Shown: positions 5,977 to 44,722, counted from the stretch's first letter. The stretch: DNA of 64,000 bases from Dehalococcoidia bacterium (GCA_965243745.1 CBDEVR010000002.1:327263-391262), one strand, 5' to 3'. Notes: a model not told the origin generated them from the sequence alone. Program-made: numbers and translations.

Positions 5977-7053
5977 CTAGATATCGCACTCGACGTCGAA
6001 CTCCGCGCAGACGCCGCGGAACCACTCGACCACCTCGCGATGCAGCGGGATGCCCTGCACAGAGCGCTCCTCCAGTGCGTCCCACTCCGGATCGCCTGCA
6101 ACCATCACGCGATCGTGGCCCGCCGCGGGAGGCGTCGCCTTCAACTCGCGGATGAAGTCGTCCATCCGTCCCTTGAACTCGCCAACGTCGCTGAAGGCGT
6201 CGATGTTGTACGCAGCGACGTAGTGGCGGTAGTTCTGGCGTCCGGCCTGCATCCCGTAGTCCGTCCCGGAAAGCACGGAGCAGAGGATGTCGACCGCCAC
6301 CGCGAGGCCGTAGCCCTTGTGCGAACCGGCGTCGCGGTTCGTGCCGAGCGGCAGCAGGATGTAGTCGTCCGGCACGGGCGCGGGCTCCATCACCGGCGTG
6401 CCGTCCTCCGCCGCGATGGTCCCCGGCGGGAGCAGCGTCCCCATCCGGCGGGCGTTCCGCACCTTGTTGACCGGCACCACGCTGGTCGCCATGTCGAATA
6501 CCCACGGACGCTCCTCCAGCGTGGGTGCGGCGATGGCGATGGGGTTGGTCCCGAGACGCGGCGCCCGTCCGAACGTCGGCGCGACGTCCGGCCCGGTGGC
6601 CGTCATGCAAACACCGATCATGTCGTGCGGGAGCGCCAGCATCGCGTGGTAGGCCGCCATGCCGACGTGCCCGCCATTGAACATCGTGACGACGCCGATG
6701 CCGGTATGTCTCGCCTTCTCGATGGCGATCTCCATCGCCTTCGGAGCGATGATGACGCCAAGCCCGCGGTCGCAGTCGATGTTCGCGGAGGCCGCGCGCT
6801 CCCGCACGACACGCCACTGCGGCGCGATCTTCTGCACGCCGTTCTGGTAGCGGTCCAGGTAGACCTTCAGCATGTTGGAGACGCCGTGGCTGTCCACCCC
6901 ACGCAGATCGGCGGTGACGAGCACGTCCGCCGCGAGCGCAGCATCCCCGGGCGCGAGGCCTACCTTCTCGAACAGCGCTTCCGTCGCTTCCCGCAGCGGC
7001 CCGGCCTGTACGCGAACGGCGTCCTCCTCCCGGATGTGGAAGCTCTGCGTCAC
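5977..7053 (-). CDS. Ldh family 2 oxidoreductase (malate/L-lactate/sulfolactate dehydrogenase type)
   Basis: ADVLVTADLRGVDSHGVSNMLKVYL and ...NPIAIAAP... motifs; 358 aa. Confidence 0.75.
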   Translation of the reverse strand: MTQSFHIREEDAVRVQAGPLREATEALFEKVGLAPGDAALAADVLVTADLRGVDSHGVSNMLKVYLDRYQNGVQKIAPQWRVVRERAASANIDCDRGLGVIIAPKAMEIAIEKARHTGIGVVTMFNGGHVGMAAYHAMLALPHDMIGVCMTATGPDVAPTFGRAPRLGTNPIAIAAPTLEERPWVFDMATSVVPVNKVRNARRMGTLLPPGTIAAEDGTPVMEPAPVPDDYILLPLGTNRDAGSHKGYGLAVAVDILCSVLSGTDYGMQAGRQNYRHYVAAYNIDAFSDVGEFKGRMDDFIRELKATPPAAGHDRVMVAGDPEWDALEERSVQGIPLHREVVEWFRGVCAEFDVECDI

Positions 7054-9786: not shown

Positions 9787-10047
9787 ATGAGCACCGAGAG
9801 CGTTCCTGCCTACTTCGCCGACTTCAAGGAAGAGAACGCCAGACAGCACGGCGAACTGAGCGCCAAGATCGAGCAGACCAAGGGCGATCTGGGTGTTCGG
9901 CTAGAGCAGTCCGAAGGCAGGTTGAGTCTGCAGATAGAGCGTACGCAGGCAACGCTCATCAAATGGGTAGTAGCGACCATGCTCGGCGGCATCACCGCCG
10001 TCAGCGGCCTGATGTTCACGCTCGCCTACCTGATACAGTCTGCGTAG
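9787..10047 (+). CDS. Small coiled-coil protein with C-terminal TM helix (DUF1640-like)
   Basis: 86 aa. A heptad-like N-terminal half is followed by a hydrophobic C-terminus, IKWVVATMLGGITAVSGLMFTLAYLI. Confidence 0.5.
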   Translation: MSTESVPAYFADFKEENARQHGELSAKIEQTKGDLGVRLEQSEGRLSLQIERTQATLIKWVVATMLGGITAVSGLMFTLAYLIQSA

Positions 10048-10183
10048 AGCAAGGCCAGAGCTCTCGCCCTCCCCCTCCCCCGGATCACACTCCTTAGCAC
10101 CCACAACCCTCACTATTGCCCTCGCCTGCGTGCGGGCGTACAGTTCGCCGCAAGTGAACGGATGGCGCAGCCGGAGGTGTGCG

Positions 10184-11215
10184 ATGGCCGTGATCGACTC
10201 AGATGCCCACGTCGTGGAGTCGGAGCGGACGTGGGACTTCATCCCGGATGAGCTGCAGCACCTCCGCCCCATCGTCCTGCTGCCCAAGGAGGGCTACAAG
10301 TCGCCCTCTCCGGAGTTCTGGTATGTCGACGGGCGGGCCTTCAGCAAGGGCGTCAACGTCGGCCTCGACACCGACGAGGCCACCCGCGAGGCGAGCGACA
10401 TCGCCAGGCGGCTCGCCCACATGGATGAGCTCGGCGTCGACACGCACGTCCTCTACCCCAGCATCTTCCTCCGCCCGCTTGCCACGCACCCTGAGGTGGA
10501 CCTGGCGCTCGCACAGGGCTACAACCGCTGGCTCGCCGACATCCACCGGCAGGGCGGCGGACGCCTCCGTTGGGCCGTCGTGCTCCCCACGATGTCGCTC
10601 GGCGAGTCGATCGAAGAGATGCAGTTCGGGAAGGACAACGGGGCGTGCGCGGTGTTCATGCGCGGCATCGAGGGCCCGCACCGGCTGAGCGACCCGTACA
10701 TGACCCCGCTCTGGGAGGAGGCGCAGCGGCTGGACCTCCCGGTATGTATCCATGCCGCGACCGGCAACTTCGCTTTCTTCGACTACTTCGGGCGCGATGC
10801 GGGCTTCTCCACGTTCAAGCTCTCCGGCGTCGGCGCGTTCCACGACATCGTTATGAAGGACATGCACCTGCGCTTCCCCGACCTGCGCTGGGGGTTCGTG
10901 GAGCTGAGCGCGTCGTGGGTCCCGTACGCGATGAACGACCTGGCGCTGCGGTTCGAGAAGCGGGGCAAGGCGTGGCCGGGACGCGAACTGCTGGCGGAGC
11001 GCAACATCTGGGTCGCCGTGCAGACCGCCGACGACATCGATTACATCATCGACTGCGCGGGCGAGGACAACCTCGTGCTCGGCACGGACTACGGCCACAA
11101 CGACACCTCGACCGAGCTGCACGCGCTCCGCAACCTGCGCGAGAACGGCGGACTCGGCGACGAGGTGGCGGACAAGATACTCGACCACAACCCCACGAAA
11201 CTCTACGCGCTCTAG
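10184..11215 (+). CDS. Amidohydrolase-2 (ACMSD-like, PF04909-type) family protein
   Basis: MAVIDSDAHVVE..., HVLYPS..., VCIHA..., LGTDYGHND motifs. The ATG at 10184 follows GGAGG. Confidence 0.8.
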   Translation: MAVIDSDAHVVESERTWDFIPDELQHLRPIVLLPKEGYKSPSPEFWYVDGRAFSKGVNVGLDTDEATREASDIARRLAHMDELGVDTHVLYPSIFLRPLATHPEVDLALAQGYNRWLADIHRQGGGRLRWAVVLPTMSLGESIEEMQFGKDNGACAVFMRGIEGPHRLSDPYMTPLWEEAQRLDLPVCIHAATGNFAFFDYFGRDAGFSTFKLSGVGAFHDIVMKDMHLRFPDLRWGFVELSASWVPYAMNDLALRFEKRGKAWPGRELLAERNIWVAVQTADDIDYIIDCAGEDNLVLGTDYGHNDTSTELHALRNLRENGGLGDEVADKILDHNPTKLYAL

Positions 11216-31143: not shown

Positions 31144-32559
31144 TCAGCGCTCTCCCGGGTCCCGCGCATCAGATCTGCTTCTGTTCCCGTCGCCGAGCCG
31201 GTAGATGGCCACGATCAGGTTGCCGCCGACAACGAAACCGATGTAGGCGAAGAGGGCGGCTGCATGCCACGTGTACCCCAGGTTCAGCCGGTCGAGGGCC
31301 TCTTCCCGGGAGAAGCCCAACCTGGCGAAGTCGATCTCCCACGAGTTGAACAGGTTGTGGTCCGGCAGGACCATCGGCAGATCGGGAGAGACGTATACCG
31401 CCAGGACGGTAAGCAGACCCAGAACCGTCGAAACGACTGCTACCACCAGCGTGGTGGACAGCAGGAACTGCCGGTCCCTCTCGCTCGGGTTGGTGGAGGG
31501 CTCCTGGACAACCAGCAATGCGATGAAGAGTAACGCCACCACCGGCATCAGGACCCCAAACTGTATCCAGACCGACGCGTTCGATATCGCGAGGACAACG
31601 GCGTACACGAAGCCGATCGGGGCCAGTACCGCCCAGACCGACCGCCTGAGGACACTGCCCTCGCTACCGTGGTGCAAGTAGTGCCATCGCCACAAGAACT
31701 GAGACATCAGCCCAGCGGATGAAGCGAGCGCCAGGTTAACAAGGAGCGCCAACATGTAGGGCAGGTACGTGCCGGCTGAATCGCCCACCGTATAGAAGCC
31801 GTAGTGGTCCATGCCCAGGGGCGCGAACTGCAAAAGCGGAGTGCTCAGTACAAAGAACAGGGTACTCCAGAAGAATTCTCTGAGAGTGACGACGGTGCGA
31901 TCAGGGAATAGGACTCCCTGCACCAACACCATTCCCGTTACAAGGCCAACATAGACCACGGGAAGCCAGATATTGCTCCAGTCCAGGAACGAGAAGGCGT
32001 ACCCGACGCCAACGATAAGGGCGCCCAGGAGCAGACATCTGAGAGACACGAATCTCCAGCCCATCAAGGGCGGGATGACGGTTGTTGAAGCGCGACCTCC
32101 GGCAGCGCCGGGGCCTGCCAGCACATCTCTTTCGCCCGGAATCGGTTCGTATCCGGGGCCCTGGTTGCTCCCACCATTGATGGCCATGAAGGAAGCCGTC
32201 TGGAGATCGGGCGCGAGGCCTGCCAGCAGGATCAGTCCCGCCACCTCCGTTGACGACAGCCCCAGGGCCAACCCGAAGACCTGCAGCCGGTGCACGGTGG
32301 GACGTGTAGCCCCGGACTCCCACCGGGAGACGGTGGCGTGGCTGAACCGCTCCGCGTACTCATCGTCTATCGACGCCATGAGCCGGAGCAGCGCTTCCTG
32401 GCTCAGGCCGCGCTGGCCGTCCTCGGAGAGGAAGGACTCGCGGTAGGCCTTCATGGCGAACCCTGCCTGGGCCGCTCTCAACCGTTGTTCATCGATCTCG
32501 GCTGTCATCGTCAGGTGTACATCGTGGGTACTGTCGCCGAGAGGTACGTTCGTGCGCAT
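31144..32559 (-). CDS. XRE-type HTH domain fused to a polytopic membrane domain (function unknown)
   Basis: HTH segment LSQEALLRLMASI...SHATVSRWESGATRPTV followed by about 9-10 hydrophobic helices. The start is uncertain (ATG at 32559 or 32508). The track ORF extends into the upstream repeat and is probably too long. Confidence 0.6.
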   Translation of the reverse strand: MRTNVPLGDSTHDVHLTMTAEIDEQRLRAAQAGFAMKAYRESFLSEDGQRGLSQEALLRLMASIDDEYAERFSHATVSRWESGATRPTVHRLQVFGLALGLSSTEVAGLILLAGLAPDLQTASFMAINGGSNQGPGYEPIPGERDVLAGPGAAGGRASTTVIPPLMGWRFVSLRCLLLGALIVGVGYAFSFLDWSNIWLPVVYVGLVTGMVLVQGVLFPDRTVVTLREFFWSTLFFVLSTPLLQFAPLGMDHYGFYTVGDSAGTYLPYMLALLVNLALASSAGLMSQFLWRWHYLHHGSEGSVLRRSVWAVLAPIGFVYAVVLAISNASVWIQFGVLMPVVALLFIALLVVQEPSTNPSERDRQFLLSTTLVVAVVSTVLGLLTVLAVYVSPDLPMVLPDHNLFNSWEIDFARLGFSREEALDRLNLGYTWHAAALFAYIGFVVGGNLIVAIYRLGDGNRSRSDARDPGER

Positions 32560-32623
32560 GCGGACATGGTATCGGATGCAACTTCGGCGAACAGTATGTA
32601 CCACCACTGTTGCGGAGACTCCG

Positions 32624-32795
32624 GGTGAACGCCATGCCGCGCCAGCACACCGCATCCGCTGACCGCGCACATAACCATTCATGGACTGTGCACAACGCCC
32701 TGGGTAAGGGCATGGATCCGCGAACATCGCAGGAGTGGAACAGTCCGAAACCGCGCATGTACAGACTTCCCGGGGAGGCATCAGTCAGGCTGTTG
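32624..32795. repeat. About 170-bp direct repeat, copy 1
   Basis: Similar at most positions by eye to 33062..33230. Shared blocks include atccgctgaccgcgcaca, catggactgtgcacaacgc, ggatccgcgaacatcgcaggagtgga and gtccgaaaccgcgcatgtacagacttcc. Confidence 0.85.
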
Positions 32796-33300: not shown

Positions 33301-36300
33301 ATGCACGCTACGCGCCCGGCGCGCTTCTTTCGCCCCCTCATGTCCATGGCAGCCCTGGCTTTCCTGGCGGCGCTCCTACTGCATGTCCCGCAGGCACGCG
33401 CGCAGTTCGACAATACCGCCCCCTTACTGCTGGCGGCGAACGTGGACGGAACGTCCCTGGTCCTCATCTATAGCGAGCTCCTGAACGAAAGCTCCACCCC
33501 CGCAGCGAGCGACTATACGGTGGATATCGGCGGCACGGACTACACCCCGTCGAGCGTCGCAGTGCTCGGCGCTGAGGTGGCGCTCACGCTGTCGACAGGC
33601 GCCGCAAGCGGCGACACCGTGACGTTGGACTACACAGTGGGGACAAACCCGGTGGAGGACCCGGCAGGCAACGACGCGCAGGCGTTGACCAGCTGGTCTG
33701 TGGCCAACCACACCGGCGCGACCAACGACCGGCCGGAATTCTCGAGCGACACGATCACCATCACTGTCGATGAGAACACGCCGTCTCTGACCGCCTTCGG
33801 GGACCCGGTCGCCGCCACGGACGATGACACGGGCGACACGCTGACCTACGAGCTGCACTCAACCGTCGTTCCTACATTCTTCATCGACACGAGCTCCGGT
33901 CAGATTTCAGTATTCGGAAACCTGGACTTTGAAACCACATCCTCCTACGTCGCACCTATGTACGTTCGCGACAGCAAGACCCCCGCCGGGGACAGCGACA
34001 CGCAGTGGGACGACAGCATCAAGGTGACCATCAGCGTCAACGACCTCAATGAAGAGCCCACCATCACTGGCGCTACTGCCCCCGACGTTGACGAGAACAC
34101 GACCACCGTCGACACGTACACGGTCTCGGACCCGGACACGGCGGACACCCACACGTGGTCGATAGACAGCGACACCAGCGTTGAGGAGAACCAGGACGGA
34201 GCGCTGTTCCAGATCGGGCAGACCAGCGGCGTGCTCTCATTCATCAACGCGCCGGACTACGAGACGCCGGGCAGCGCGACCACTCCCGCCAGCAACACAT
34301 ACCAGGTGACGATCAAGGTCACCGACAACGGTTCGCCCGCAATGAGCGATACCTTTGACGTTGTCGTCGATGTCATCAACGTCAACGAGGCGCCGGCCAT
34401 CACGAGCACGGGCTCGTCCCACACCTCCATCAGCAAGCCGGAGGGCACGGGGCCCAGTGACCCACTCGCAACCTACGCGGCGGACGACCCGGAGGACGAT
34501 ACGCTGACGTGGACGCTGAGCGGGCCTGACGCGGCAGACTTCACCATCAACTCGTCGACAGGAGCGCTCAGGTTTCAGGCCCTCACCGACTACGAGGACC
34601 CACGGGACGCCGGCACCAACAACGTCTACAACGTGACCGTGGAGGTGAAGGACACCGATGGCTCCGCCGTCGACGACAGCATCAACGTGGTCGTCACCGT
34701 CACCAACATCGACGAGGCCGGCACGGTAACGCTGCCCGGCACGATCACGGCTGGGCAGGCGGTAACTGCGACGTTGACCGACCACGACGGTACCCCCAGC
34801 AACGTAACGTGGCAGTGGTCGAGGTCCGACACGGCAGGCGGGACGTTTACACCCATCAGCGGGGCCACCTCCAACCCCTACACGCCCGTAGCCGTGGACG
34901 TGGGCAAGTATCTGAAGGCCACGGCGTCCTACACGGACCCCCACGGTTCGGGCAAGTCCGCAACCAGCGCCGCGTCGAGCCAGGTGGCGGTGGGCAACAG
35001 GGACCCGTCGTTCAGCAGCATGACCGCCACCCGCAGCGTGCCGGAGAACAGTTCATCAGGGACGAACGTCGGGGCTATGGTCTCGGCCACGGACCACGAC
35101 AACGACACGCTGCACTACTGGTTGACCGGCACGGACGCGTCTTCCTTCGACATCGTTTCGACAAGCGGCCAGATACAGACGAAGTCGGGGATCACCTACA
35201 ACTACGAGTCCAAGAGCAGCTACAGCGTGACCGTGAACGTGCGCGACAACAAGGACGAGGCCGGCGACACCGACACCGACACCGACGACGACATCACGGT
35301 GACCATCAACCTCTCCAACGTGGACGAGCCGGGCACGGTGACGATCACGGGCACGGAGTCGGGCGGGGAGACGCTGACGGCGTCCGTGACCGACATCGAC
35401 GGTACCGTCAGCAACCTGACGTGGCAGTGGGCGCTGGGGGCCTCGGCCTCGGGACCCTTCGCCCCCATCAGCGGGGCGACAAACAACACGTATACAACCG
35501 TGGCCGTCGACGTGAACAGGTTCCTGCGCGCCACGGCGAGCTACACGGACCCCCAGGGTTCCGGCAAGTCCGCCAGCGCCGTGACCGGCCAGATCAGCGC
35601 CAGCAACAATGAGCCGGAGTTCCCCACCAGTGAGACGGGCTCCCGGAGTTTGGCGGAGAACAGCGGAGGCGGAACAAACGTCGGCGCGCCGGTGGCGGCC
35701 GAGGATGACGACAGCGACTCACTGACCTACTCGCTCAGCGGCACGGACGCGTCTTCCTTCGACATCGTTGCGACAAGCGGCCAGATACGGACCAAGTCGG
35801 GGATCACCTATAACTACGAGTCCAAGAGCGTTTACGGCTTTTCCGTGCATGTGCACGACAACAAGGACGCCGCCAGCAATTCTCCTCATACCACCACCGA
35901 CGACACCATCAATGTGACCATCACCCTCACGGACGTCAACGAACAGCCCGCGATCTCGACCCCCCAGACCTCCATCTCCGTTGAGGAAAACCAGACCTCC
36001 GTCCTCACGTACATGGCGACCGACGTGGACAGCGAGAACAACGAGGCCCACGACTCGGCCAATACGCTGACGTGGTCCGTGGAGAGCGCCGACGACGGCA
36101 GTTTCTTCGAGATTGGCTCGTCGAGCGGCGTGCTCACGTTCAAGAACGCGCCGAACTTCGAGGACAAGCAGGACGCCGGCAACGACAACGTCTACAACGT
36201 CACGGTCACGGTCACGGACAACGGCATCGACGGCGCCCGGGGAGCGTCGAACCACCTCAGCGTCTCCAGGTCCCTCGCCGTGACCGTCACGGACGTCAAC

Positions 36301-39300
36301 GAAGCGCCCACGTTGACGTCCGGCCCCGGTGCCCCCGCATTCGACGAGAACGCGACAGGGGTCGTCGCGACGTACGTGGCGACGGACCCGGACGCGACGA
36401 CGGGGACGATGTCGTGGGACCTGCAGGGCAACGATGCGGGGGACTTCAACATCACGTCGACCGTGAACGGAACGGCAGAACTCACGTTCAGGAGCCCGCC
36501 GGATTACGAGAGGCCGGACGACACCGGCACGGACAACGTCTACGACGTGACGGTGCGGGTGAGGGACAACGGGAGCCCGAGACTGGAAGACACCCAGATC
36601 GTCGCGGTCACCGTCAACGACCTCAACGAGACGCCGGTGGTCGCCGGGAACGCCGGGCCGAGCTTCGCGGAGATCGAGTTCGATCACACGGCGACAGCCT
36701 CCGAGCTCGTCATCGGCACCTACACCGCCACCGACGACGACAACGCTGACAACGCCGGTCTCCAGACGATCACGTTCGACGTGTCCGGCACGGACGCGGC
36801 CCACTTCAGCATCAACGGGAGCACCGGCGTCCTCTCCTTCAGCATCGAGCCGGACTTCGAGAACCCAGCCGACCTGGCGGACTCGAACATGATGGCCGCC
36901 TCCGACAACATGTACCAGATCGTCGTGGAGGCGGACGACGGGGCGGGTGAATCGAACAGCGTCGGGACGTTCACCGTCACCGTGACGGTCACGAACGTCA
37001 ACGAGACACCGGAGATCCCGGCCGGCGTTCCTGACGAGAGCTTCGCGGAGATCGAGTGGGACGCCGATTCCGCGAACCTGGACGTGATGACCTACATCCC
37101 CCGGGACGAGGAGATCACCACTCTTACCCAGTTGTCGTGGTCCCTGGTCGGCACAGACGCCGCCGACTTCCAGATCACCGAGGACTCCACAACCGGCCAC
37201 GGCACGCTCAGCTTCCGGGAACGGCCCAACTTCGAGGACCCGACCGACCGCGTGAACACCTCCGAAAGCCACGCGGCCGGCGACAACATGTACCAGGTCA
37301 TCGTGAAGATCAGCGACGGCACGAACACGCGCGACTACCCGTTGACCGTGACTGTCACCAACGTCAACGAGACGCCGGGGTTCACTCAGCTTTCGACCGG
37401 TCGGCACGCGGACGAGATCGAGTACGACTCCGGGACGACGGCGAACGATCTCTCCACCATCCCCGCCACGGTGGCGAACCAGGCCTATTGGTACCGGGTC
37501 GAGGCCCGGGACGAGGAGGGGGACGACATCATCTGGACCATCACCGGGCCCGACGCCGCCGACTTCGTCATCGTGGAGGACCCCGACTTCGTCATGACGG
37601 CCGACGCCGACGAGAGCGCCATCGCCCGCTGGGCCATCGTGCCGGACTTCGAGGACCCGATGGGCTCTTCAACCGATGTAGGGGCTAACGGATACGTGTT
37701 CACCGTGAACGCGTCCGACGGCACCAACACCGCGATGCACGAGGTCTTCATCCGTATCTTCGACGTCAACGAGCAGCCGGAGTTCACGGGGACCGTCGAA
37801 ACGGCGATAGCGCTCGACGAACACGACGCTACCCTCGACGCGAGTTTCCAGGAGCCTCCGTACGGCTTCGCGACCATCGCGTCGTACACCGCGCGCGACG
37901 AGGAGGGCGGGGTCACGTGGTCGCTCACGGGCACAGACGCGCTTGACTTCGAGATCGACAGCGGCGGCAACGTCACCTTCAAGGAGACGCCCAGCTTCGA
38001 GGACCCGAAGGACTCCGGCGGGGACAACGTCTACAACTTCAACGTCGTTGCCACCGACATCATGAGCAAGACGAACCGGCGCACCGCCACGCAGCCCGTC
38101 ACCGTGACGGTGCGCGACATCGAGGAGACGGGCGTCATCAGGGTGGACAACCTGGACCCCGTCGTGGGGGACACGATCACCTTCACGTTGTCGGACCCGG
38201 ACGGCGGCATCGACACGGATGCAGTCGATATCAGCTGGACCCTGAGGGCTCAGGAATCGGGGGTGTGGCAGCCCATTACCATCGGGGGGGGCGCCTCCAC
38301 TACGCTGAGGTACACGGTGGACGAGGATGATGCCGGGAAGCCTCTGCGGGCCGAGGTGTCCTACTTCGACCGGCGAAACGCGGACCGCAACCTCTTCAAC
38401 CGGAAGATGCTGACCAGCGGCGAGACTTCCCCTGTGGAAGCGGACCCCCTGCCCAACGTGAAGCCCCGGTTCCGCTCGGGGACCAGCCAGGCGATCGACG
38501 AGGGGGCCGCCGGCAGGGTCCTGTCCGAACGCCTGACAGCCACGGACCGCGATAACGACAACCTGACATTCGGCATCCAGGCCGGGCAGGACTCCGCTCT
38601 CTTCGAGATCGACCCGTCTTCCGGACAGATCACGGCCGTCGGGGCGTTGAACTTCGAGACGGCGGGATCGGAGGGCTTGCTGTTCTTCACCGCCACCCTG
38701 CATGACGGCAAGGGCTTGGACGCCAACGACATGGTGATCAACGACGACTCCATCGACGTGACTACCGTTGTATCGGTGCGTGTCATAGACCTGGAGGAAG
38801 ACGGCGTAGTAACCCTCTCCGTCCAGGAGCCGGATGTCGGGGAGTTGGTGACGGCCACGCTCACTGACGGGGACGGCGGCGTCACGGGCGCCTCCTGGCA
38901 GTGGGCCTGGTCGGACGACGGGCGGACCGGCTGGACGCCCATATCGGGAGCGACGAACCGCAGCTACAGGCCGACCGAAGACGACGGGGACCGCTACCTG
39001 CGCGCCAGGGTCGAATACACGGACCGGCGCGGCGGCGGCAAGAGCGCGGAAGGGATAACCAACCCTGTTCCCACTACGAACCGGCGCCCCCTCTTCCCGT
39101 CCACGGAGAACGGACAGCGCACGGTGGACGAGAACTCGCGGGCGGGCACGAACATCGGCGCTCCGGTGGCGGCGGAAGACCCTGAGCGAAACACACTGAC
39201 GTACACGCTGACCGGCACGGACGCCGCCTCCTTCACCATCGTGACGAGGACCGGCCAAATCCGGCTGGCATCGGGCGTGACGCTGGACTATGAGACGAAG

Positions 39301-41532
39301 TCCACCTACCGCGTCACCGTGGAGGTGCACGACGGCAGGGACGGCTCCGGCGTCACGTCGACCGCCATCGACGACACGCAGGACGTGACGATAACGGTGG
39401 AGAACCTCGATGAGCCGGGGACCGTCACGCTCTCTTCGGAGACCGCTACCATCCAGGCGAGGGTCCCGGTGACGGCCACGCTGGAGGACGACGACGGCGT
39501 CATCGGCTCCGTCAGCTGGCAGTGGGCGCGCTCTCGCAGCAGTACGTCGGGATGGGCCAACATCGCGGGGGCGACGTCTGACACGTTCACGCCGGCGGAC
39601 ACCGACGTCGGCGGCTACATCCGCGCGACCGCCAGCTACAACGACGGTGAAGACTCGGGCAAGACGGCCGTCAGGGTGTCGCCGCGCGTAGGGCAGCCGC
39701 CGCCGGTGAACTCGGCGCCAGCGTTCCCGGCAACGGAGAACGGCAGGCGGGAGATCGCGGAGGACGCCACCGGCGGCACGGCCGTTGGCGACCCCGTGGC
39801 GGCCACGGACTTCAACGACGACCCGCTGACGTACACGTTGAGCGGGACGGACGCGGCGCTCTTCACCGTCGGCTCGAATGATGGGCAGTTACGGGTTGCG
39901 GCCGGCGCGCAACTGGACTTCGAGACCAGGCGCACCCTGCGGGTCACGGTGGAGGTCTCGGACGGCGCGAACTCGCTGGGCGACCCCGATAACGACGCCA
40001 TCGACGACCGGCAGAACGTGATCGTCACGCTGACGGATGTGAACGAAGCGCCCGTCGTCACCGGCGACGAGATGCCCTCCTTCCAAGAGAACTCCAACCG
40101 GGCGGTCGCGACCTACACCGGCACGGACCCGGAGCGCGACGTGCTCACCTGGTCGGTCAGCGACACCACCAACTTCTGGATCTCCGAGCGGGGTCAACTC
40201 TACTTCCGCACGCCCCCCAGCTACGAGGACCGGACCTCCTACCCGGTGACCATCACCGCCACGGACGACGACCCGGACAACCCTCTCTCCGGCTCGCTCT
40301 CCGTGACCGTCACCGTGACCGACGTGGAGGAGCAAGGAGTGGTCGCCGTCACCCCGTCACGAGGCTGGGTGGACGCGAATACGCGGTTCAGCGCCAGCCT
40401 GACCGACGACGACGGCAGCATAAGCAACGAGTCCTGGCAGTGGGCGCGGTCGCGTAGCCGCGGAGGCGGATGGGCAGACATCGATGGAGCAACGTCCAGC
40501 AACTACACGGTGGGCGCGGACGACGCCGACCAGTACCTGCGGGCAAGCGTCTCCTACGAGGACGCCCGCGGCAGCAACAAGACGGCTTCCGCCGTGCTCG
40601 CATCGGCCATCGGTGCTACGAGGTCCGCAACGAACACCGCGCCTGAGTTCACGGAGACGTCACCGATCACCCGCAGCGTCTCTGCGGGCACGGCGGCGGG
40701 CCGGAACGTCGGCTCGGCCGTGCGGGCCACCGATGCCGACCGGGGCGACGTCCTCACTTACGCGCTCAGCGGTTCGGACGCTGGCACCTTCGACATCGAC
40801 CCGGCCACCGGCCAGATCAAGACGAGGGACGTCCTCGAACACGACCCGGACGGAGACAACACCTACGAAGTAACGGTGTCCGTCCACGACGGCTTCGATG
40901 CCTCCTACAACCCATCCACCACCCCGGACGACACCATCGAGGTGACGATAACGGTGACCGCCGCTCCCACGGTGCGGCGGCCGCCAACCACCAGCGGTGG
41001 CGGTGGCGCCAGCGGCGGGAGTGGCGGCGGTGGTGGAGGCGGCGGCACCTTCACACCCGTCGTCACTCCCCCCGTGTTCGGTGAGGGGTTCCGCGCCTCG
41101 CGCTCCGCGCCCGAGAACGCGAAGCCCGGCGACGAGATCGGCGAGCCGGTGTCCGCGCGGGTGGTGCAGGGCGAGACGGTGACCTACTCGCTGAGCGGCG
41201 CGGACGCCGCGCTGTTCACCATCGACGAGCAGACGGGGCAGATCAGCGTCGCCGAGGGAGCGGTCTTCGACTTCGAGGGCGAGAAGAACACGTATGAGAT
41301 CGACGTGGTGGCTCGGAACTCGCGCGGCGGCGTGTCCAGCATACGGGTCGTCATCGAGATCACCAACGTGAGCCTCCAGGGCATCGCCAACGACTACGAC
41401 GCCAACGGCAACGAAAAGATCGATCTCGACGAGGCCATCGCGGCGGTCAACGACTACACCGCGGGCACGCTCACCCACGAGGAGGCGATTGAGATCGTCA
41501 AGATCTACTTCGCCGAGCGGAGCACGTCGTGA
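33301..41532 (+). CDS. Giant secreted cadherin-repeat surface protein (2743 aa) with N-terminal SwmB-type Ig-like domain and C-terminal dockerin/EF-hand-like motif
   Basis: Signal peptide ..LLLHVPQARA-QF. About 17 repeats carry cadherin hallmarks (xTDxDxxDxLTYxL and V[NT]D[VL]NExP). Six interspersed modules of about 90 aa carry a (T/S)WQW motif. A Gly-rich linker precedes the C-terminus DYDANGNEKIDLDEAIAAVNDY. Confidence 0.85.
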   Translation: MHATRPARFFRPLMSMAALAFLAALLLHVPQARAQFDNTAPLLLAANVDGTSLVLIYSELLNESSTPAASDYTVDIGGTDYTPSSVAVLGAEVALTLSTGAASGDTVTLDYTVGTNPVEDPAGNDAQALTSWSVANHTGATNDRPEFSSDTITITVDENTPSLTAFGDPVAATDDDTGDTLTYELHSTVVPTFFIDTSSGQISVFGNLDFETTSSYVAPMYVRDSKTPAGDSDTQWDDSIKVTISVNDLNEEPTITGATAPDVDENTTTVDTYTVSDPDTADTHTWSIDSDTSVEENQDGALFQIGQTSGVLSFINAPDYETPGSATTPASNTYQVTIKVTDNGSPAMSDTFDVVVDVINVNEAPAITSTGSSHTSISKPEGTGPSDPLATYAADDPEDDTLTWTLSGPDAADFTINSSTGALRFQALTDYEDPRDAGTNNVYNVTVEVKDTDGSAVDDSINVVVTVTNIDEAGTVTLPGTITAGQAVTATLTDHDGTPSNVTWQWSRSDTAGGTFTPISGATSNPYTPVAVDVGKYLKATASYTDPHGSGKSATSAASSQVAVGNRDPSFSSMTATRSVPENSSSGTNVGAMVSATDHDNDTLHYWLTGTDASSFDIVSTSGQIQTKSGITYNYESKSSYSVTVNVRDNKDEAGDTDTDTDDDITVTINLSNVDEPGTVTITGTESGGETLTASVTDIDGTVSNLTWQWALGASASGPFAPISGATNNTYTTVAVDVNRFLRATASYTDPQGSGKSASAVTGQISASNNEPEFPTSETGSRSLAENSGGGTNVGAPVAAEDDDSDSLTYSLSGTDASSFDIVATSGQIRTKSGITYNYESKSVYGFSVHVHDNKDAASNSPHTTTDDTINVTITLTDVNEQPAISTPQTSISVEENQTSVLTYMATDVDSENNEAHDSANTLTWSVESADDGSFFEIGSSSGVLTFKNAPNFEDKQDAGNDNVYNVTVTVTDNGIDGARGASNHLSVSRSLAVTVTDVNEAPTLTSGPGAPAFDENATGVVATYVATDPDATTGTMSWDLQGNDAGDFNITSTVNGTAELTFRSPPDYERPDDTGTDNVYDVTVRVRDNGSPRLEDTQIVAVTVNDLNETPVVAGNAGPSFAEIEFDHTATASELVIGTYTATDDDNADNAGLQTITFDVSGTDAAHFSINGSTGVLSFSIEPDFENPADLADSNMMAASDNMYQIVVEADDGAGESNSVGTFTVTVTVTNVNETPEIPAGVPDESFAEIEWDADSANLDVMTYIPRDEEITTLTQLSWSLVGTDAADFQITEDSTTGHGTLSFRERPNFEDPTDRVNTSESHAAGDNMYQVIVKISDGTNTRDYPLTVTVTNVNETPGFTQLSTGRHADEIEYDSGTTANDLSTIPATVANQAYWYRVEARDEEGDDIIWTITGPDAADFVIVEDPDFVMTADADESAIARWAIVPDFEDPMGSSTDVGANGYVFTVNASDGTNTAMHEVFIRIFDVNEQPEFTGTVETAIALDEHDATLDASFQEPPYGFATIASYTARDEEGGVTWSLTGTDALDFEIDSGGNVTFKETPSFEDPKDSGGDNVYNFNVVATDIMSKTNRRTATQPVTVTVRDIEETGVIRVDNLDPVVGDTITFTLSDPDGGIDTDAVDISWTLRAQESGVWQPITIGGGASTTLRYTVDEDDAGKPLRAEVSYFDRRNADRNLFNRKMLTSGETSPVEADPLPNVKPRFRSGTSQAIDEGAAGRVLSERLTATDRDNDNLTFGIQAGQDSALFEIDPSSGQITAVGALNFETAGSEGLLFFTATLHDGKGLDANDMVINDDSIDVTTVVSVRVIDLEEDGVVTLSVQEPDVGELVTATLTDGDGGVTGASWQWAWSDDGRTGWTPISGATNRSYRPTEDDGDRYLRARVEYTDRRGGGKSAEGITNPVPTTNRRPLFPSTENGQRTVDENSRAGTNIGAPVAAEDPERNTLTYTLTGTDAASFTIVTRTGQIRLASGVTLDYETKSTYRVTVEVHDGRDGSGVTSTAIDDTQDVTITVENLDEPGTVTLSSETATIQARVPVTATLEDDDGVIGSVSWQWARSRSSTSGWANIAGATSDTFTPADTDVGGYIRATASYNDGEDSGKTAVRVSPRVGQPPPVNSAPAFPATENGRREIAEDATGGTAVGDPVAATDFNDDPLTYTLSGTDAALFTVGSNDGQLRVAAGAQLDFETRRTLRVTVEVSDGANSLGDPDNDAIDDRQNVIVTLTDVNEAPVVTGDEMPSFQENSNRAVATYTGTDPERDVLTWSVSDTTNFWISERGQLYFRTPPSYEDRTSYPVTITATDDDPDNPLSGSLSVTVTVTDVEEQGVVAVTPSRGWVDANTRFSASLTDDDGSISNESWQWARSRSRGGGWADIDGATSSNYTVGADDADQYLRASVSYEDARGSNKTASAVLASAIGATRSATNTAPEFTETSPITRSVSAGTAAGRNVGSAVRATDADRGDVLTYALSGSDAGTFDIDPATGQIKTRDVLEHDPDGDNTYEVTVSVHDGFDASYNPSTTPDDTIEVTITVTAAPTVRRPPTTSGGGGASGGSGGGGGGGGTFTPVVTPPVFGEGFRASRSAPENAKPGDEIGEPVSARVVQGETVTYSLSGADAALFTIDEQTGQISVAEGAVFDFEGEKNTYEIDVVARNSRGGVSSIRVVIEITNVSLQGIANDYDANGNEKIDLDEAIAAVNDYTAGTLTHEEAIEIVKIYFAERSTS

Positions 41533-42308
41533 ACAGAAGCGTACGACTGGTGTGCCTGCTGCTGCTCATGGTGGGCGTAGTCCTGGTGGTGCTGCTCAGC
41601 CAGTTGGGCAGTGCGGACGCCTCCGGTCACAGCGCCACGCGATCGTTCGCCTCCCCCTCGGTTGCTCCAAGCGGACGTATCGAGGTGACGATAACGGCCC
41701 GTGACTATGGAGCCTTCGCCCAGGTGGTGGAGACGATCCCGGGTGGGTTCACTTACGTGGGTTCCAGCCTTCCCACTGCTGCCGTGAACGCGAGACTGGA
41801 TGCGGTCACGTTCACGCTGGTCGGGGAGGAGCAGTTCACGTACACGGTGGAGGCGCCTGCCGTCGAGGCGACCTTCAGCTTCTCCGGTCTCGTGCGGGAC
41901 CAGCACAAGGTCGAGCACGAGGTCGGAGGCGACGCCAGTCTGCGGGTCGGGCCGCCACCCACACCAGTCCCGACGCCCGACCCGCAGGCCTCGCCAACGG
42001 CTACCCCAACCCCCACGCCGGCCCCGGTCGCCACACCCGCCCCGGCTCCTACCACCACACCGCGCCCCACGGCGACGCCCATGCCGCAGCCGACCGCTAC
42101 CGCAACGCCGCGTCCCACGGCAACACCGGTGCCTGAGCCCACCGCCACGCCTACTCCCAGACCTCCGGCCCCTCCGACGATGACCCCGGTTCCGGTTGCG
42201 CCGACGTCCGAGGGAGAAGGCGGCATTCCGCCGTGGGTATGGGTCCTGCCGCTCATCTTCATCGTGCTGGCCCTCGGCAGCATCGGATACGCGCGCAGAC
42301 AGTCCTAA
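41529..42308 (+). CDS. Membrane-anchored surface protein: signal peptide, beta-sandwich-like domain, Pro/Thr-rich stalk, C-terminal TM with basic tail
   Basis: The GTG start overlaps the giant gene stop (GTGA). The protein has a leader ..LGSADA-SGH, a domain of about 105 aa (ATRSFASPSVAPSGRIEVTITARDYGAFAQVVETIPGGFTYV...), a P/T/A linker of about 90 aa, and the C-terminus GGIPPWVWVLPLIFIVLALGSIGYARRQS. Confidence 0.7.
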   Translation: MNRSVRLVCLLLLMVGVVLVVLLSQLGSADASGHSATRSFASPSVAPSGRIEVTITARDYGAFAQVVETIPGGFTYVGSSLPTAAVNARLDAVTFTLVGEEQFTYTVEAPAVEATFSFSGLVRDQHKVEHEVGGDASLRVGPPPTPVPTPDPQASPTATPTPTPAPVATPAPAPTTTPRPTATPMPQPTATATPRPTATPVPEPTATPTPRPPAPPTMTPVPVAPTSEGEGGIPPWVWVLPLIFIVLALGSIGYARRQS

Positions 42309-42339
42309 AGCCTGCGCGTGTTCCGGACCCAGTGGTTAT

Positions 42340-42415
42340 TGGTGCCCCCAGCGGGATTCGAACCCCGCTCACCAAGGCAGGTGTTTCTTGGGGTTCGTCG
42401 AACCTGACTATCGGC
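42340..42415 (-). pseudogene. tRNA-Glu-derived remnant (intact 3' acceptor and T-arm half only)
   Basis: The 26 nt at 42340-42365 are identical to the 3' end of tRNA-Glu (44646-44671), CCA included. The 5' half cannot form an acceptor stem, D stem or 7-nt anticodon loop. Confidence 0.6.
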
Positions 42416-42653
42416 AACCAGCCATGCTCTCGACCACCTCGAAAGCCTTCTGTGCTCCTGCTGGGCCACCTGCCGGCATCAACAACACGCGCTCCAGGCC
42501 CAAGTCGAAACGCTTCAATCTGAGCCAGTTATAGGGCGATTCGCCCGCAGCCGGTTCGGCCCGGTAGTCTACGCCGTGCGGGTTTGGCGCTATACTTGCC
42601 ATACAGCACTTGTTGACGCCACTTCGCAGTATCCGCAGGCGGAGGAGGGTCTA

Positions 42654-43589
42654 ATGCCTATCGGACTGGGCTTGGCATCGTCGCACGCACCTTCGTTGGT
42701 TGCACCTGCAGAACTATGGCCGGCCATCTATCGAAGGCTGGCAAGTAATGTCCCCCAGCCGCCGCAGGCTTCCGGCGAAACCCCTGAAGTAATCTCCGGC
42801 TACCTGGAGCGGATCGAACGTGCGTTCAGCACGCTGAGGCACGCAATCGAAACATATGGAACAGAGTTGCTCATCATCGTCGGCGGCGACCAGTCCGAGA
42901 TGTTCGACCGTAGCAACGTTCCGAATCTGATGATCTATGCCGGTGAGGTAGCCTGGGGTCACAACAACAACGGGATAGCTGGTGAAAAACCTTCTGAGGA
43001 CGATATCGTTCGATTGAAGATCGACGTCGCAACTGCAGAGTGGCTCTTGGACCGCCTTGTGCGGGAAGAAGGGTTCGACATCACCATCAGTCGTGAGCAG
43101 AGTGCCTTGGGCCGCCCTGAGCGCGGGCTGCCCCATGCCTTCGCCCGCCCCATGCCGCTCTTGATCCCGATGCTCGATATCCCTGTCATCGTCATCTACG
43201 AAAACACCTACGACCCTCCGTCCCTCTCGGCCTCCCGCTGCTACGAGCTTGGCCAGACCCTTGCTCGGGTATTCAGGCATGACCCCAGAAAGATAGCGAT
43301 CTATGGCTCCGGAGGGCTCTCCCATGATCCCGGCGGTCCTCGCTCCGGCTGGGTGGACGAGCCGCTTGACCGTTGGTTCCTTGGTCGGCTCGAGGGTGGA
43401 CATGGACGAGAAACGACGGCACTCTATCGGTTCGATTCGATGACGATGCGCGGTGGAACAGGCGAGATGCGAGCTTGGATCACGGTAGCAGGAGCAATGG
43501 AAGAGATGGAGAGCAGCGGTGCGGCTGTGGTGGACTACATCCCTGCGAACCACGCCGTAACGGGGCTGGGCTGGGCATACTGGTCTTGA
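42654..43589 (+). CDS. LigB-like (class III extradiol dioxygenase superfamily) protein, close paralog of 23228..24193
   Basis: MPIGLGLASSHAPS..., GGDQSEMFDRSNVPNLMIY, GSGGLSHDPGGPRSGW, GGTGEMRAW. The ATG at 42654 matches the paralog start; the track ORF begins earlier. Confidence 0.75.
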   Translation: MPIGLGLASSHAPSLVAPAELWPAIYRRLASNVPQPPQASGETPEVISGYLERIERAFSTLRHAIETYGTELLIIVGGDQSEMFDRSNVPNLMIYAGEVAWGHNNNGIAGEKPSEDDIVRLKIDVATAEWLLDRLVREEGFDITISREQSALGRPERGLPHAFARPMPLLIPMLDIPVIVIYENTYDPPSLSASRCYELGQTLARVFRHDPRKIAIYGSGGLSHDPGGPRSGWVDEPLDRWFLGRLEGGHGRETTALYRFDSMTMRGGTGEMRAWITVAGAMEEMESSGAAVVDYIPANHAVTGLGWAYWS

Positions 43590-43688: not shown

Positions 43689-44624
43689 ATGCTGGGACTT
43701 GGTCTTGCCGCCTCCTATGCCCCCGCCATGTATCGAGACCCCAATGAGTGGAAGGCGATCCACGATTGGCTGGTCGGAGACGCTCCTCAGCCGCTGGAAC
43801 TTGCTGACGAAACCGATGGCGTTATCAGACAGCATACTGAGCGAGTAAAGGCCAACCTCGGCAGATTCCGCGCCGAGCTGGAAGAGTACAACCCGTCTGC
43901 CCTTGTCGTGCTGGTCAGTGACACGGGTCGAATGTTCAGCCGTTTGCAGGTCCCGCAGTTCTGTACATTCCTCGGAGAAAGCCTCTGGGGCAGCACTCGT
44001 CTGGAGGGGCTGGGCGAGGGGGCGGACGATGACATAGTCGAGCTTTCATGCGACACCGGCTTGGCTGCCTTCGTGCACGAGGAGCTCGTGGCCAACGGGT
44101 TCGACATGAGCTACAGCAAAGAGTTCAACCCCCAAGGCCAGCCGGCGTACGGTATGCCGGTGTCACTGGTTGCGCTCGTGCGCGCACTGAATCCCAGCCT
44201 CGACCTCCCAGTCGTCCCAATCTTGATGAACTGCCATGTCACACCGTCGCCGTCCGGAAGACGATGCCGGGAGCTCGGGGAAGCTCTTGGCGCGATCCTT
44301 GATGAGCCTGAGCAGCGCATCGCATTGGCTGCTTCAGGAGGCCTGTCCCACGACCACCACGGTCCCCGGGCTGGCTGGATCGACTTCCCATTTGACCGAT
44401 GGATGCTGAAACAGGTTTCACGTGGGAGAGGCACGAACCTCAACCCCGTTTGGGACTTGGAGTCGGACAGCATTCAAGGAGGTACTGCCGAGGTCCGCCT
44501 TTGGTCAGTTGTGGCGGGTGCATGCGAGGCCTTAGGCGGCAAGGCAGTAGTGGACGACTATTTCCCGGCGTTCACAGCTGCGACGGGTCTGGGGTTCGTA
44601 CACTACCCACTCCATCGCGCATAG
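43689..44624 (+). CDS. Divergent LigB-like protein lacking the N-terminal metal-binding His (possible non-catalytic partner subunit)
   Basis: GLAASYAPAM (His12 position is Tyr), VSDTGRMF (His61 position is Thr), ASGGLSHDHHGPRAGW, GGTAEVRLW. Confidence 0.65.
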   Translation: MLGLGLAASYAPAMYRDPNEWKAIHDWLVGDAPQPLELADETDGVIRQHTERVKANLGRFRAELEEYNPSALVVLVSDTGRMFSRLQVPQFCTFLGESLWGSTRLEGLGEGADDDIVELSCDTGLAAFVHEELVANGFDMSYSKEFNPQGQPAYGMPVSLVALVRALNPSLDLPVVPILMNCHVTPSPSGRRCRELGEALGAILDEPEQRIALAASGGLSHDHHGPRAGWIDFPFDRWMLKQVSRGRGTNLNPVWDLESDSIQGGTAEVRLWSVVAGACEALGGKAVVDDYFPAFTAATGLGFVHYPLHRA

Positions 44625-44645: not shown

Positions 44646-44722
44646 TGGTGCCCCCAGCGGGATTCGAACCCGCGATCTCCACCTTGAAAGGGTGGCGTCC
44701 TAGGCCGCTAGACTATAGGGGC
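44646..44722 (-). tRNA. tRNA-Glu (anticodon TTC), CCA encoded
   Basis: Full cloverleaf: acceptor GCCCCTA/TGGGGGC, D stem GTCT/GGAC, anticodon arm CCACC-CTTTCAA-GGTGG, T arm GCGGG-TTCGAAT-CCCGC. Confidence 0.9.

Follow-up and report, generated by a model that had tools for sequence, protein, structure and literature searches.

We analyzed a window of 64,000 nucleotides of DNA (66% G+C) from a Dehalococcoidia bacterium (GCA_965243745.1, CBDEVR010000002.1:327263-391262); "the window" means this whole stretch. It contains two overlapping genes, one for a giant secreted cadherin-repeat adhesin of 2,743 amino acids and one for a membrane-bound stalk protein of 259 amino acids, which we call the anchor protein (Table 1). 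We propose that these genes form a surface tethering unit, in which an EF-hand-type tail at the end of the adhesin docks onto a DUF11-type domain of the anchor protein. We lean towards this proposal and are far from certain of it. What carries it is the conserved pairing of genes for the tail and for the domain across many loci, together with a natural fusion of the two genes.

Table 1. Features of the adhesin and anchor protein genes, and of one neighboring gene, in window coordinates.
Feature	Position	Strand	Basis or remark
Giant secreted cadherin-repeat adhesin gene, the "cargo"	33301..41532	+	2743 aa; list of open reading frames and translation
Adhesin signal peptide, predicted (MHATRPARFFRPLMSMAALAFLAALLLHVPQARA)	33301..33402	+	Sequence; presumed cleavage site
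C-terminal EF-hand-type tail module (YDANGNEKIDLDEAIAAVNDYTAGTLTHEEAIEIVKIYF), proposed docking module	41395..41511	+	Alignment with tails of other loci, profile matches, PDB profile search
Canonical 12-residue EF-hand calcium loop DANGNEKIDLDE	41398..41433	+	Sequence; ligand positions 1, 3, 5, 9, 12 are D, N, N, D, E
Shine-Dalgarno-like GGAG	41519..41522	+	Six bases upstream of the anchor GTG; read from the sequence
GTGA start/stop overlap (translational coupling)	41529..41532	+	List of open reading frames and sequence; same 4-nt overlap in L002, L094, L095, L096
Anchor protein gene, type-I membrane stalk protein	41529..42308	+	259 aa; architecture common to orthologues P0001, P0002, P0110, P0120, P0128, P0154
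Anchor signal peptide, residues 1-31 (...SADA/SGHS)	41529..41621	+	Hydropathy, leader conserved in orthologues; presumed cleavage after SADA
DUF11-type Ig-like beta-sandwich (SGHSATRSF...LRVG), proposed tail receptor	41622..41951	+	HMMER, relatives' Pfam DUF11 matches, AlphaFold2, Foldseek
Pro/Thr/Ala-rich stalk, 87 residues	41952..42212	+	Composition 34 P, 23 T, 13 A; similar linker in relatives
Juxtamembrane motif GGIPPW	42219..42236	+	Family consensus (E/D)n-G-G-hydrophobic-P-x-W
Transmembrane helix (VWVLPLIFIVLALGSIGY) and basic cytoplasmic tail (ARRQS)	42237..42305	+	Hydropathy segment 230-256; sequence
Divergently oriented 545-aa gene, possible regulator	31144..32781	-	Weak Pfam HTH_31 match, E 4e-4, below cut-off; syntenic with HTH_31 gene of L001

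An anchorless adhesin and its neighbor

Pfam finds cadherin domains in 14 stretches of the adhesin (E = 5e-95), along with SCAB-Ig/AIR9-type Ig domains and SWM_repeat. The protein is strongly acidic, with 434 Asp and Glu versus 142 Lys and Arg. A preliminary description of this DNA had stated that the giant protein has no anchor of its own, and we agree. By hydropathy, its sole hydrophobic segment is residues 9-32, inside the N-terminal signal peptide; a scan of the sequence found no LPXTG motif, no cysteines, and no second hydrophobic segment; and there is no anchor domain among its Pfam matches. The C terminus reads ...GIANDYDANGNEKIDLDEAIAAVNDYTAGTLTHEEAIEIVKIYFAERSTS, followed by the stop codon. 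(The preliminary description had the motif right, but its quotation of this end lacked the last six residues, AERSTS.) A Gly/Ser run (SGGGGASGGSGGGGGGGG; window 40980-41060, adhesin residues ~2563-2582) lies between the main rod and a C-terminal portion with the final cadherin-like domain plus the tail. In the equivalent place, the natural fusion protein that we describe below (P0137) has a far longer Gly/Ser region. The run in the adhesin may be a flexible hinge ahead of the docking end.

The topology that had been proposed for the anchor protein (a leader, a beta-sandwich, a Pro/Thr/Ala stalk, a transmembrane helix, and a basic tail) agrees with its sequence and with the fold predicted by AlphaFold2. 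Pro, Thr, and Ala make up 80% of the stalk, and the transmembrane helix is placed at residues 237-254. The GTGA in which the stop codon of the adhesin overlaps the start codon of the anchor protein is also where it was said to be.

The tail of the adhesin is a module of about 40-45 amino acids with one canonical EF-hand loop, which has ligands at positions 1, 3, 5, 9, and 12 and a hydrophobic residue at position 8. The pattern D-x-D-x-N-G-x-x-x-I-D-x-x-E, to which the preliminary description had drawn attention, is literally present near the C terminus, and a six-frame translation of the whole window contains this loop pattern only once. Among ten aligned tails, the invariant residues are Y, D, E (loop position 12), A, and Y, and the consensus for the loop of the tail family is YDxNxDGxIxxxE. 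The second half of the tail (DYTAGTLTHEEA in the window) has no loop ligands, which is true across the aligned tails, and the conserved second helix pair of the module ends in (L/I)Y(F/L). In an AlphaFold2 model of a chimera, which we discuss below, the tail is predicted to be helix-loop-helix-helix. A search of the databases with a profile of the tail gave matches down to E = 9e-16. Against the PDB, the profile aligned with the EF-hand loops of hippocalcin-like protein 1 (E = 6e-9), GCAP1, and hippocalcin, and ALG-2, calbindin, and calmodulin were also among the matches listed. A few database relatives of the tail carry precomputed matches to the Pfam EF-hand families (PF13405 or PF00036). 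The window's adhesin does not match these families, and its relatives score 13-15 bits versus a cut-off of 25; Pfam and NCBIfam searches with the last 110 amino acids of the adhesin returned nothing. We conclude that the tail is a single-loop EF-hand hairpin, and its loop would be expected to bind calcium.

The tail had previously been described as dockerin-like, which we do not find. Pfam's Dockerin_1 (PF00404) does not match the adhesin at E <= 1, nor ten tail-bearing relatives at E <= 0.1, nor ten further tail proteins at E <= 0.05. The 60 best PDB matches listed for the tail profile include no dockerin. We dropped this identification given the single loop, the Glu at position 12, and the PDB matches to EF-hand proteins rather than dockerins.

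The 259-residue anchor protein does not match any Pfam family at E <= 1 or any NCBIfam family. With a word-indexed search for homologues of its domain, we recovered just 5 close relatives, and the family became visible through an exhaustive HMMER search, which yielded 1,181 representative proteins at E <= 1e-3, including 208 below 1e-30. The best-scoring of these proteins that we examined have 1-6 tandem copies of the domain. Over the same domain, several relatives exceed the cut-off of Pfam's DUF11 (PF01345), namely P0018 (77.6 bits), P0047 (53.4), and P0100 (43.0), as do proteins from loci L028 (28.5 bits) and L073; TIGR01451 also matches in L028, at 25.6. The window's protein is linked by phmmer to its DUF11-matching relatives at E = 1e-40 to 1e-121. 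So, by transitive homology only, the window's domain is a divergent DUF11-type module.

AlphaFold2 predicts that the ~110-residue domain is an all-beta sandwich with 11 strands (51-row alignment; predicted local distance difference test [pLDDT] 96.4; predicted template-modeling score [pTM] 0.88). When we compared this model with the PDB using Foldseek, we found generic Ig-like sandwiches: the CLIPPER adhesin domain, BslA, the C-terminal domains of streptococcal antigen I/II (TMq up to 0.71), YcnI, and chains of the Sec61-TRAP translocon complex. We found no solved structure that is related to the domain by sequence.

The preliminary description had also suggested that the anchor protein is cohesin-like. 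The cohesin fold is a nine-stranded jelly-roll sandwich. In the comparison of structures, generic Ig-like sandwiches came first and an archaeal cohesin (the non-cellulosomal cohesin 2xdh of Archaeoglobus fulgidus) was only the 16th match (E = 4e-4, TMq 0.60). Pfam's Cohesin (PF00963) does not match the domain, and relatives match DUF11, BatD, and CARDB instead. On this profile and fold evidence, we dropped cohesin as the identity of the domain.

Gene pairs across loci and lineages

A window-type anchor gene lies downstream of a tail-ending protein in all six loci where we could place one (the window, L002, L003, L094, L095, and L096), and the 4-nucleotide start/stop overlap is present in five of the six. 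The upstream protein, or cargo, of L094 differs from the window's: it has Peptidase_S8, fn3, and cadherin domains. There is also a single protein that contains both components. P0137 (1,451 amino acids, from a 3.2-Mb contig) consists of cadherins, the tail, an 11-residue linker, a DUF11-like domain, a Pro/Thr stalk, and a transmembrane helix, and the leader of the second protein is cleanly absent. P0137 is a natural fusion of the cargo and anchor genes.

We then scanned metagenomes from JGI using an alignment of the anchor domain only, with no information about the tail in the query. The scan yielded 25 loci, all from other lineages and with a G+C content of 35-58%. At least some of them are archaeal, as L068 has a PGF-CTERM match above the cut-offs and L088 a PEF-CTERM match. 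Local profile searches identified a tail-ending open reading frame in about 24 of the 25 loci (L068 has three) and found none in L070 or L089. Wherever there was upstream sequence, which was the case for 20 loci, a tail-ending frame was immediately upstream (20 of 20), and its stop was -43 to +91 bp from the start of the DUF11-like open frame. Five loci start at the edge of a contig, and three of these have a tail-ending frame just downstream. The functional pairing that was proposed in the preliminary description is therefore conserved, in the window-type loci, in the assessable metagenome loci, and in the fusion, and the co-occurrence of the anchor with tail-ending proteins emerges when starting from the anchor domain alone. 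This is not one locus that was sampled repeatedly, because the 36 adjacent tail/domain pairs from all of our sets form 16 groups at 70% identity of the domain.

The upstream cargoes in the metagenome loci share only a signal peptide and the tail. They include proteins with PKD, Big_5, InlB B-repeat, or SBP_bac_5 domains and ~970-residue proteins without a firm match to any family. On the other side, the sole feature that is common to all of the downstream partners is the DUF11-like domain. L071 (765-9360) is the most telling case. Its first gene encodes a solute-binding protein of family 5 (235 bits) with the EF-hand tail at its end; next come the gene for a DUF11-like protein that has six domains and a PGF-type end, and then two permease and two ATPase genes, all of Opp type. 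The partner gene is inserted into an Opp-type transporter operon. A solute-binding protein needs to be held at the membrane, and L071 may represent a new way of tethering one.

Subtilisin-type proteases are also found among the tail-bearing cargoes. P0100 (1,106 amino acids) combines a protease with an OpuAC-type substrate-binding domain, leucine-rich repeats, and DUF11-like domains. The protein encoded at 1-2504 of L094 combines a protease with fn3, PPC, P_proprotein, and cadherin domains.

In the other direction, we searched for the commonest subtype of the tail in one genome per species from 185,579 species. (Both scans were seeded with tight subfamily alignments, and each samples one subfamily.) All 64 of the resulting loci are from metagenome-assembled genomes of Dehalococcoidia, SAR202, or other Chloroflexota, with up to eight tail loci in one genome (OZ242009.1). 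This distribution, together with the relatives, points to the class Dehalococcoidia of the Chloroflexota for the window as well. A DUF11-like gene starts within 150 bp downstream for 16 of the 65 C-terminal tails that could be assessed, and the 695 kb of these loci contains only 35 pieces of DUF11-like open reading frames. Several of the partners have a signal peptide, 1-5 domains, a Pro/Thr stalk, and the sequence EEGGFPVW ahead of a transmembrane helix and RRR.

The subtype of the tail follows the subtype of the adjacent domain: tails with AINDYLF..NLYLFG accompany domains with YGQAGGVTE, and tails with AVxDY..LYF accompany domains with YGAF[AG]QVVE. L049 alone contains both combinations, next to each other. 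The correlation between tail identities and domain identities (Spearman 0.40) is suggestive only.

Proposed docking and its alternatives

How might these two proteins work together? Both would be exported by Sec. The 259-residue protein would stay in the membrane via its C-terminal helix, and its 87-residue Pro/Thr stalk would hold the single DUF11-type sandwich off the cell. The EF-hand hairpin, probably loaded with calcium, would dock non-covalently onto this sandwich and so keep the anchorless 2,743-residue cadherin rod on the cell. The 4-nucleotide overlap would couple the synthesis of the two proteins. More broadly, the EF-hand tail would be a portable mark on diverse secreted cargoes, such as adhesins, S8 proteases, PKD/Ig proteins, and the Opp solute-binding protein. 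The scaffolds would be mono- or multivalent, with 1-6 DUF11-like domains on a transmembrane, PGF-CTERM, PEF-CTERM, or LPXTG anchor.

The C termini of the domain family fit with docking. Of the 150 best members of the family, about 40 end in the GG-h-P-x-W motif (where h is hydrophobic) and a transmembrane helix, 13 have LPXTG-like ends, one has PGF-CTERM, and about 12 have other transmembrane ends; PEF-CTERM also occurs in the family (in L088). Seven of the 150 end in the EF tail instead. We saw a tail and a membrane anchor together in one protein only, the fusion P0137, and there the tail is internal. This pattern, of an anchor or a tail and not both, is what one would predict for a tail that serves as another way of attaching the protein.

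We also joined the window's tail to the window's domain, in the manner of the natural fusion, and modeled this chimera with AlphaFold2 (pLDDT 88.7, pTM 0.67, tail pLDDT 61-88). This was a weak test: the alignment had 35 rows, one of which was a natural fusion, with almost no depth for the tail, and calcium was not included. We consider the outcome of this modeling to be neutral for docking.

Several of our observations do weigh against docking. First, given the low depth for the tail and no calcium, the chimera did not give a confident fixed arrangement of tail and domain. Second, 49 of the 65 assessable C-terminal tails in the tail-seeded scan do not have an adjacent DUF11-like gene; this would be expected if many cargoes share a few scaffolds, but it is no evidence for docking. 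Third, the tail is internal in 15 of 83 cases from Dehalococcoidia, where it is followed by fn3, CARDB, leucine-rich-repeat, or peptidase modules, so the EF-hand module is not strictly a C-terminal tag. Fourth, DUF11-like domains are not confined to anchors: 18 of the proteins that bear the tail contain such domains too, often right in front of the tail. Fifth, the partners in L083-L087 do not have a visible membrane anchor. Sixth, lineage and the seeding of the two sets both confound the co-variation of tails and domains. Finally, the window's own domain is below every Pfam threshold.

The internal EF-hand modules in L005, L022, L026, L047, L050, L054, and L058 (near position 6000 in each) are often directly after a DUF11-like domain and before fn3 and CARDB-like repeats, long leucine-rich-repeat arrays, or enzyme domains. 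The partner in L083-L087 (at ~6878-7615 in L083) has ~246 amino acids, with one DUF11-like domain and an InlB B-repeat; it ends in ...FIWELYETYIEPFM and has no transmembrane segment. A protein in L033 (3805-6333) has four DUF11-like domains and then two consecutive, near-identical EF-hand tails at its end. This protein may be an adaptor that carries a pair of docking modules, although a recent duplication is another possibility.

Adjacency and fusion show that the tail and the domain are linked, not which surfaces touch. So the pair might be linked while the tail binds some other target; the S-layer, a surface glycan, the Pro/Thr stalk, and another tail are all candidates. In that case, the DUF11-like protein would act as a co-expressed spacer, a co-receptor, or an assembly factor. 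The absence of a confident interface from AlphaFold2, the DUF11-like domains inside tail-bearing proteins, and the partners without a membrane anchor would all make sense. Nevertheless, we consider another target unlikely. If the tail and the domain did not meet, we do not see why they would be all that upstream proteins (signal peptide aside) and downstream proteins have in common, or why the type of tail would follow the type of domain even inside one locus. Also, the number of domains per partner, from one to six, fits a role in valency.

Alternatively, the tail might be a calcium-triggered cap for folding or stability, or an element for export, comparable to the C-terminal calcium-binding regions of RTX proteins, and its neighbor might merely be a co-regulated surface protein. 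It is true that the adhesin is acidic, free of cysteines, and of the cadherin type, which is calcium-dependent, so a canonical EF-hand loop would not be out of place in such a role, and a cap could be internal, as the tail sometimes is. We think that this is improbable. A cap would leave unexplained the adjacency in all 20 assessable loci, across unrelated cargoes and lineages; the insertion of the partner gene into the Opp operon; the natural fusion; and the finding that the tail is the C terminus only in proteins without a membrane or wall anchor.

Orthologues of the anchor protein begin at the matching position and have a similar leader, so neither the GTG start nor the arrangement as two genes is an artefact of a frameshift. 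The idea that the window's two reading frames are one gene, ancestrally fused as in P0137 and split by a frameshift or an assembly error, is effectively excluded: a fused form does exist and obvious frameshifts mark many of the related metagenome contigs, which are long-read assemblies at low coverage, but the second frame has its own GGAG, GTG, and complete signal peptide (which is conserved in six orthologues), the 4-nucleotide overlap recurs in four other loci, and in P0137 the leader-coding segment was deleted in frame rather than being read in another frame.

Returning to docking of the tail on the DUF11-type domain, the closest parallel is cohesin and dockerin. In cellulosomes, many unrelated secreted proteins carry a small module of a calcium loop plus a helix, usually at the C terminus, and the cohesin beta-sandwiches are on a scaffold that is anchored to the cell. 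As in the cellulosomal systems, and in non-cellulosomal ones such as that of Archaeoglobus fulgidus (PDB 2xdh), we see a small calcium-loop module on unrelated secreted proteins and one to several tandem beta-sandwiches on a cell-anchored protein with Pro/Thr linkers. Also as in those systems, some proteins bear both modules, like adaptor scaffoldins, and cargo genes outnumber scaffold genes. On the other hand, there is no sequence relationship: nothing here matches Pfam's Dockerin_1 or Cohesin. A dockerin has two tandem segments of ~22 residues, each with a calcium loop and a helix, whereas the tail has one EF-hand loop with Glu at position 12, a degenerate second half, and no duplicated segments. 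The candidate receptor is DUF11-type rather than a cohesin. Anchoring is by a transmembrane helix, PGF-CTERM, PEF-CTERM, or LPXTG, and the genes for cargo and anchor are often adjacent or overlapping, which is also unlike cohesin-dockerin.

Other comparisons are more limited. The anchor protein resembles the surface proteins with DUF11 (PF01345) or TIGR01451 in having a homologous extracellular domain, which occurs in tandem copies in the family, and varied C-terminal anchors, but the window's copy is too divergent for any Pfam threshold. We know of no partner module for DUF11, and we did not find one in the full-text literature, which covered few subscription journals. Nor did we come across, in the same literature, any account of EF-hand tails that are paired with DUF11-like anchors, and the SATRSF...YGxxxxVxETLPxGF subfamily with upstream EF tails is not described. 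The tail shares with other EF-hand proteins (PF00036/PF13405) a 12-residue DxNxDGxIxxxE loop that is followed by a helix; unlike them, it is extracellular, has a single functional loop, and is found at the end of large surface proteins. Finally, the RTX adhesins of Gram-negative bacteria that resemble LapA are secreted by a type I system and are held by an N-terminal plug in the outer-membrane channel. Like these, the window's adhesin is a long, acidic, calcium-dependent repeat rod that would be kept on the cell by a separate protein. In contrast to these, each of the two proteins here has a Sec signal peptide, and retention would depend on a C-terminal module.

Our best reading is that this is a two-part, probably calcium-dependent modular system for non-covalent docking at the cell surface, which would work as cohesin and dockerin do but is built from other modules. 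A broader claim would be that calcium-dependent docking of ~45-residue tails on 1-6 DUF11-type modules is widespread and unrecognized in monoderm Chloroflexota (Dehalococcoidia/SAR202) and in archaea, as a convergent, cellulosome-independent counterpart of cohesin-dockerin that organizes the cell surface. The cargoes would range from adhesins, proteases, and Ig/PKD proteins to the binding proteins of ABC transporters, and the modules would sit on stalk proteins with a membrane or archaeosortase anchor. We are evenly divided about this broader claim.

Why would this matter? Cohesin-dockerin is the textbook route to multi-protein assemblies on microbial surfaces and is widely used as a tool for protein engineering. 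If the tail docks onto the DUF11-like domain, then a second and unrelated pair of modules does the same job, in lineages (Dehalococcoidia/SAR202 and several archaea) whose surfaces have hardly been studied. It would give the DUF11-type repeats a concrete role. It would also explain how anchorless giant adhesins and a tagged solute-binding protein are retained without an outer membrane. And it would provide new orthogonal docking parts, possibly with several specificities.

Anchor ends and the surroundings of the locus

The C-terminal end of the anchor protein resembles the known sorting signals (LPXTG/sortase, PGF-CTERM/archaeosortase A, PEF-CTERM, PEP-CTERM, and GlyGly-CTERM) in having a motif, a transmembrane helix, and a basic cluster after a Pro/Thr linker. 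The G, P, and W of the juxtamembrane motif are invariant among 20 aligned C termini. However, relatives in the domain family carry genuine LPXTG, PGF-CTERM, and PEF-CTERM signals, while the window's end does not match any of the sorting-signal models in NCBIfam or Pfam, either with the whole protein or with its last 44 residues. Among the motif ends of the relatives, the best score for any sorting model was 17 bits, for GPS-CTERM, versus a cut-off of 28. As positive controls, the same search identified PGF-CTERM on L068 (38.3 bits versus a cut-off of 18.8), PEF-CTERM on L088 (29.6 versus 23), and LPXTG on the end of P0043 (16.5 versus 15.9).

The preliminary description had raised the possibility that this end is a lineage-specific sorting signal. 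In ~1 Mb of fetched loci, there are five copies of the GG-h-P-x-[WL] transmembrane end, and all five are on DUF11-like proteins. A word-based profile search of the database with the 20 C termini returned only fragments, and NCBIfam searches with eight C termini were likewise uninformative about a signal. P-x-W also begins the helix in relatives that bear LPXTG, so the motif may belong to the juxtamembrane region of this family generally and not be a signal. The GG-h-P-x-W end may be a plain membrane anchor with an unexplained conserved collar.

Not all of the relatives have a Pro/Thr stalk. In P0033, P0059, P0062, P0096, and P0124, it is replaced by collagen-like GxxGxx repeats, before a conserved transmembrane end (...PAGGVLAIIALIIAIIVAVGLGAGGIYIMSRR).

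The genes that flank the pair are metabolic and unrelated to it. They include glycerate kinase, an alpha/beta hydrolase of the epoxide hydrolase type, two LigB-family dioxygenases, aspartate-semialdehyde dehydrogenase, and luciferase-like monooxygenases. The two dioxygenase genes (42576-43589 and 43689-44624) lie within 2.3 kb that is bracketed by an exact 26-nucleotide direct repeat of the 3' end of tRNA-Glu (TGGTGCCCCCAGCGGGATTCGAACCC; window 42340-42365 and 44646-44671). The first copy is 32 bp past the stop codon of the anchor gene, and the second is inside a real tRNA-Glu gene (44646-44722, minus strand). Rfam reports no tRNA in 42200-42700 of the window, and the tRNA-like stretch there is just the 26-nucleotide fragment. 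The repeat looks like a scar from an insertion into the tRNA gene.

A related contig of 105 kb (L001) gives a glimpse of the history of the locus. It lacks the adhesin, but the gene with the HTH_31 match is still there (80% identity at the DNA level), as is the anchor gene's 3' half (73%). At 10001-10576, it encodes a 191-residue remnant (P0004), which starts with MHAMRPAGYRHSLISIAAPAP, like the N terminus of the adhesin, and then resumes in the middle of the DUF11-like domain. In other words, the first ~20 codons of the adhesin are joined to the second half of the anchor gene, which appears to be due to a deletion that fused both genes. Because L001 keeps only this joined remnant beside the HTH gene, the adhesin/anchor unit can be lost as a block.

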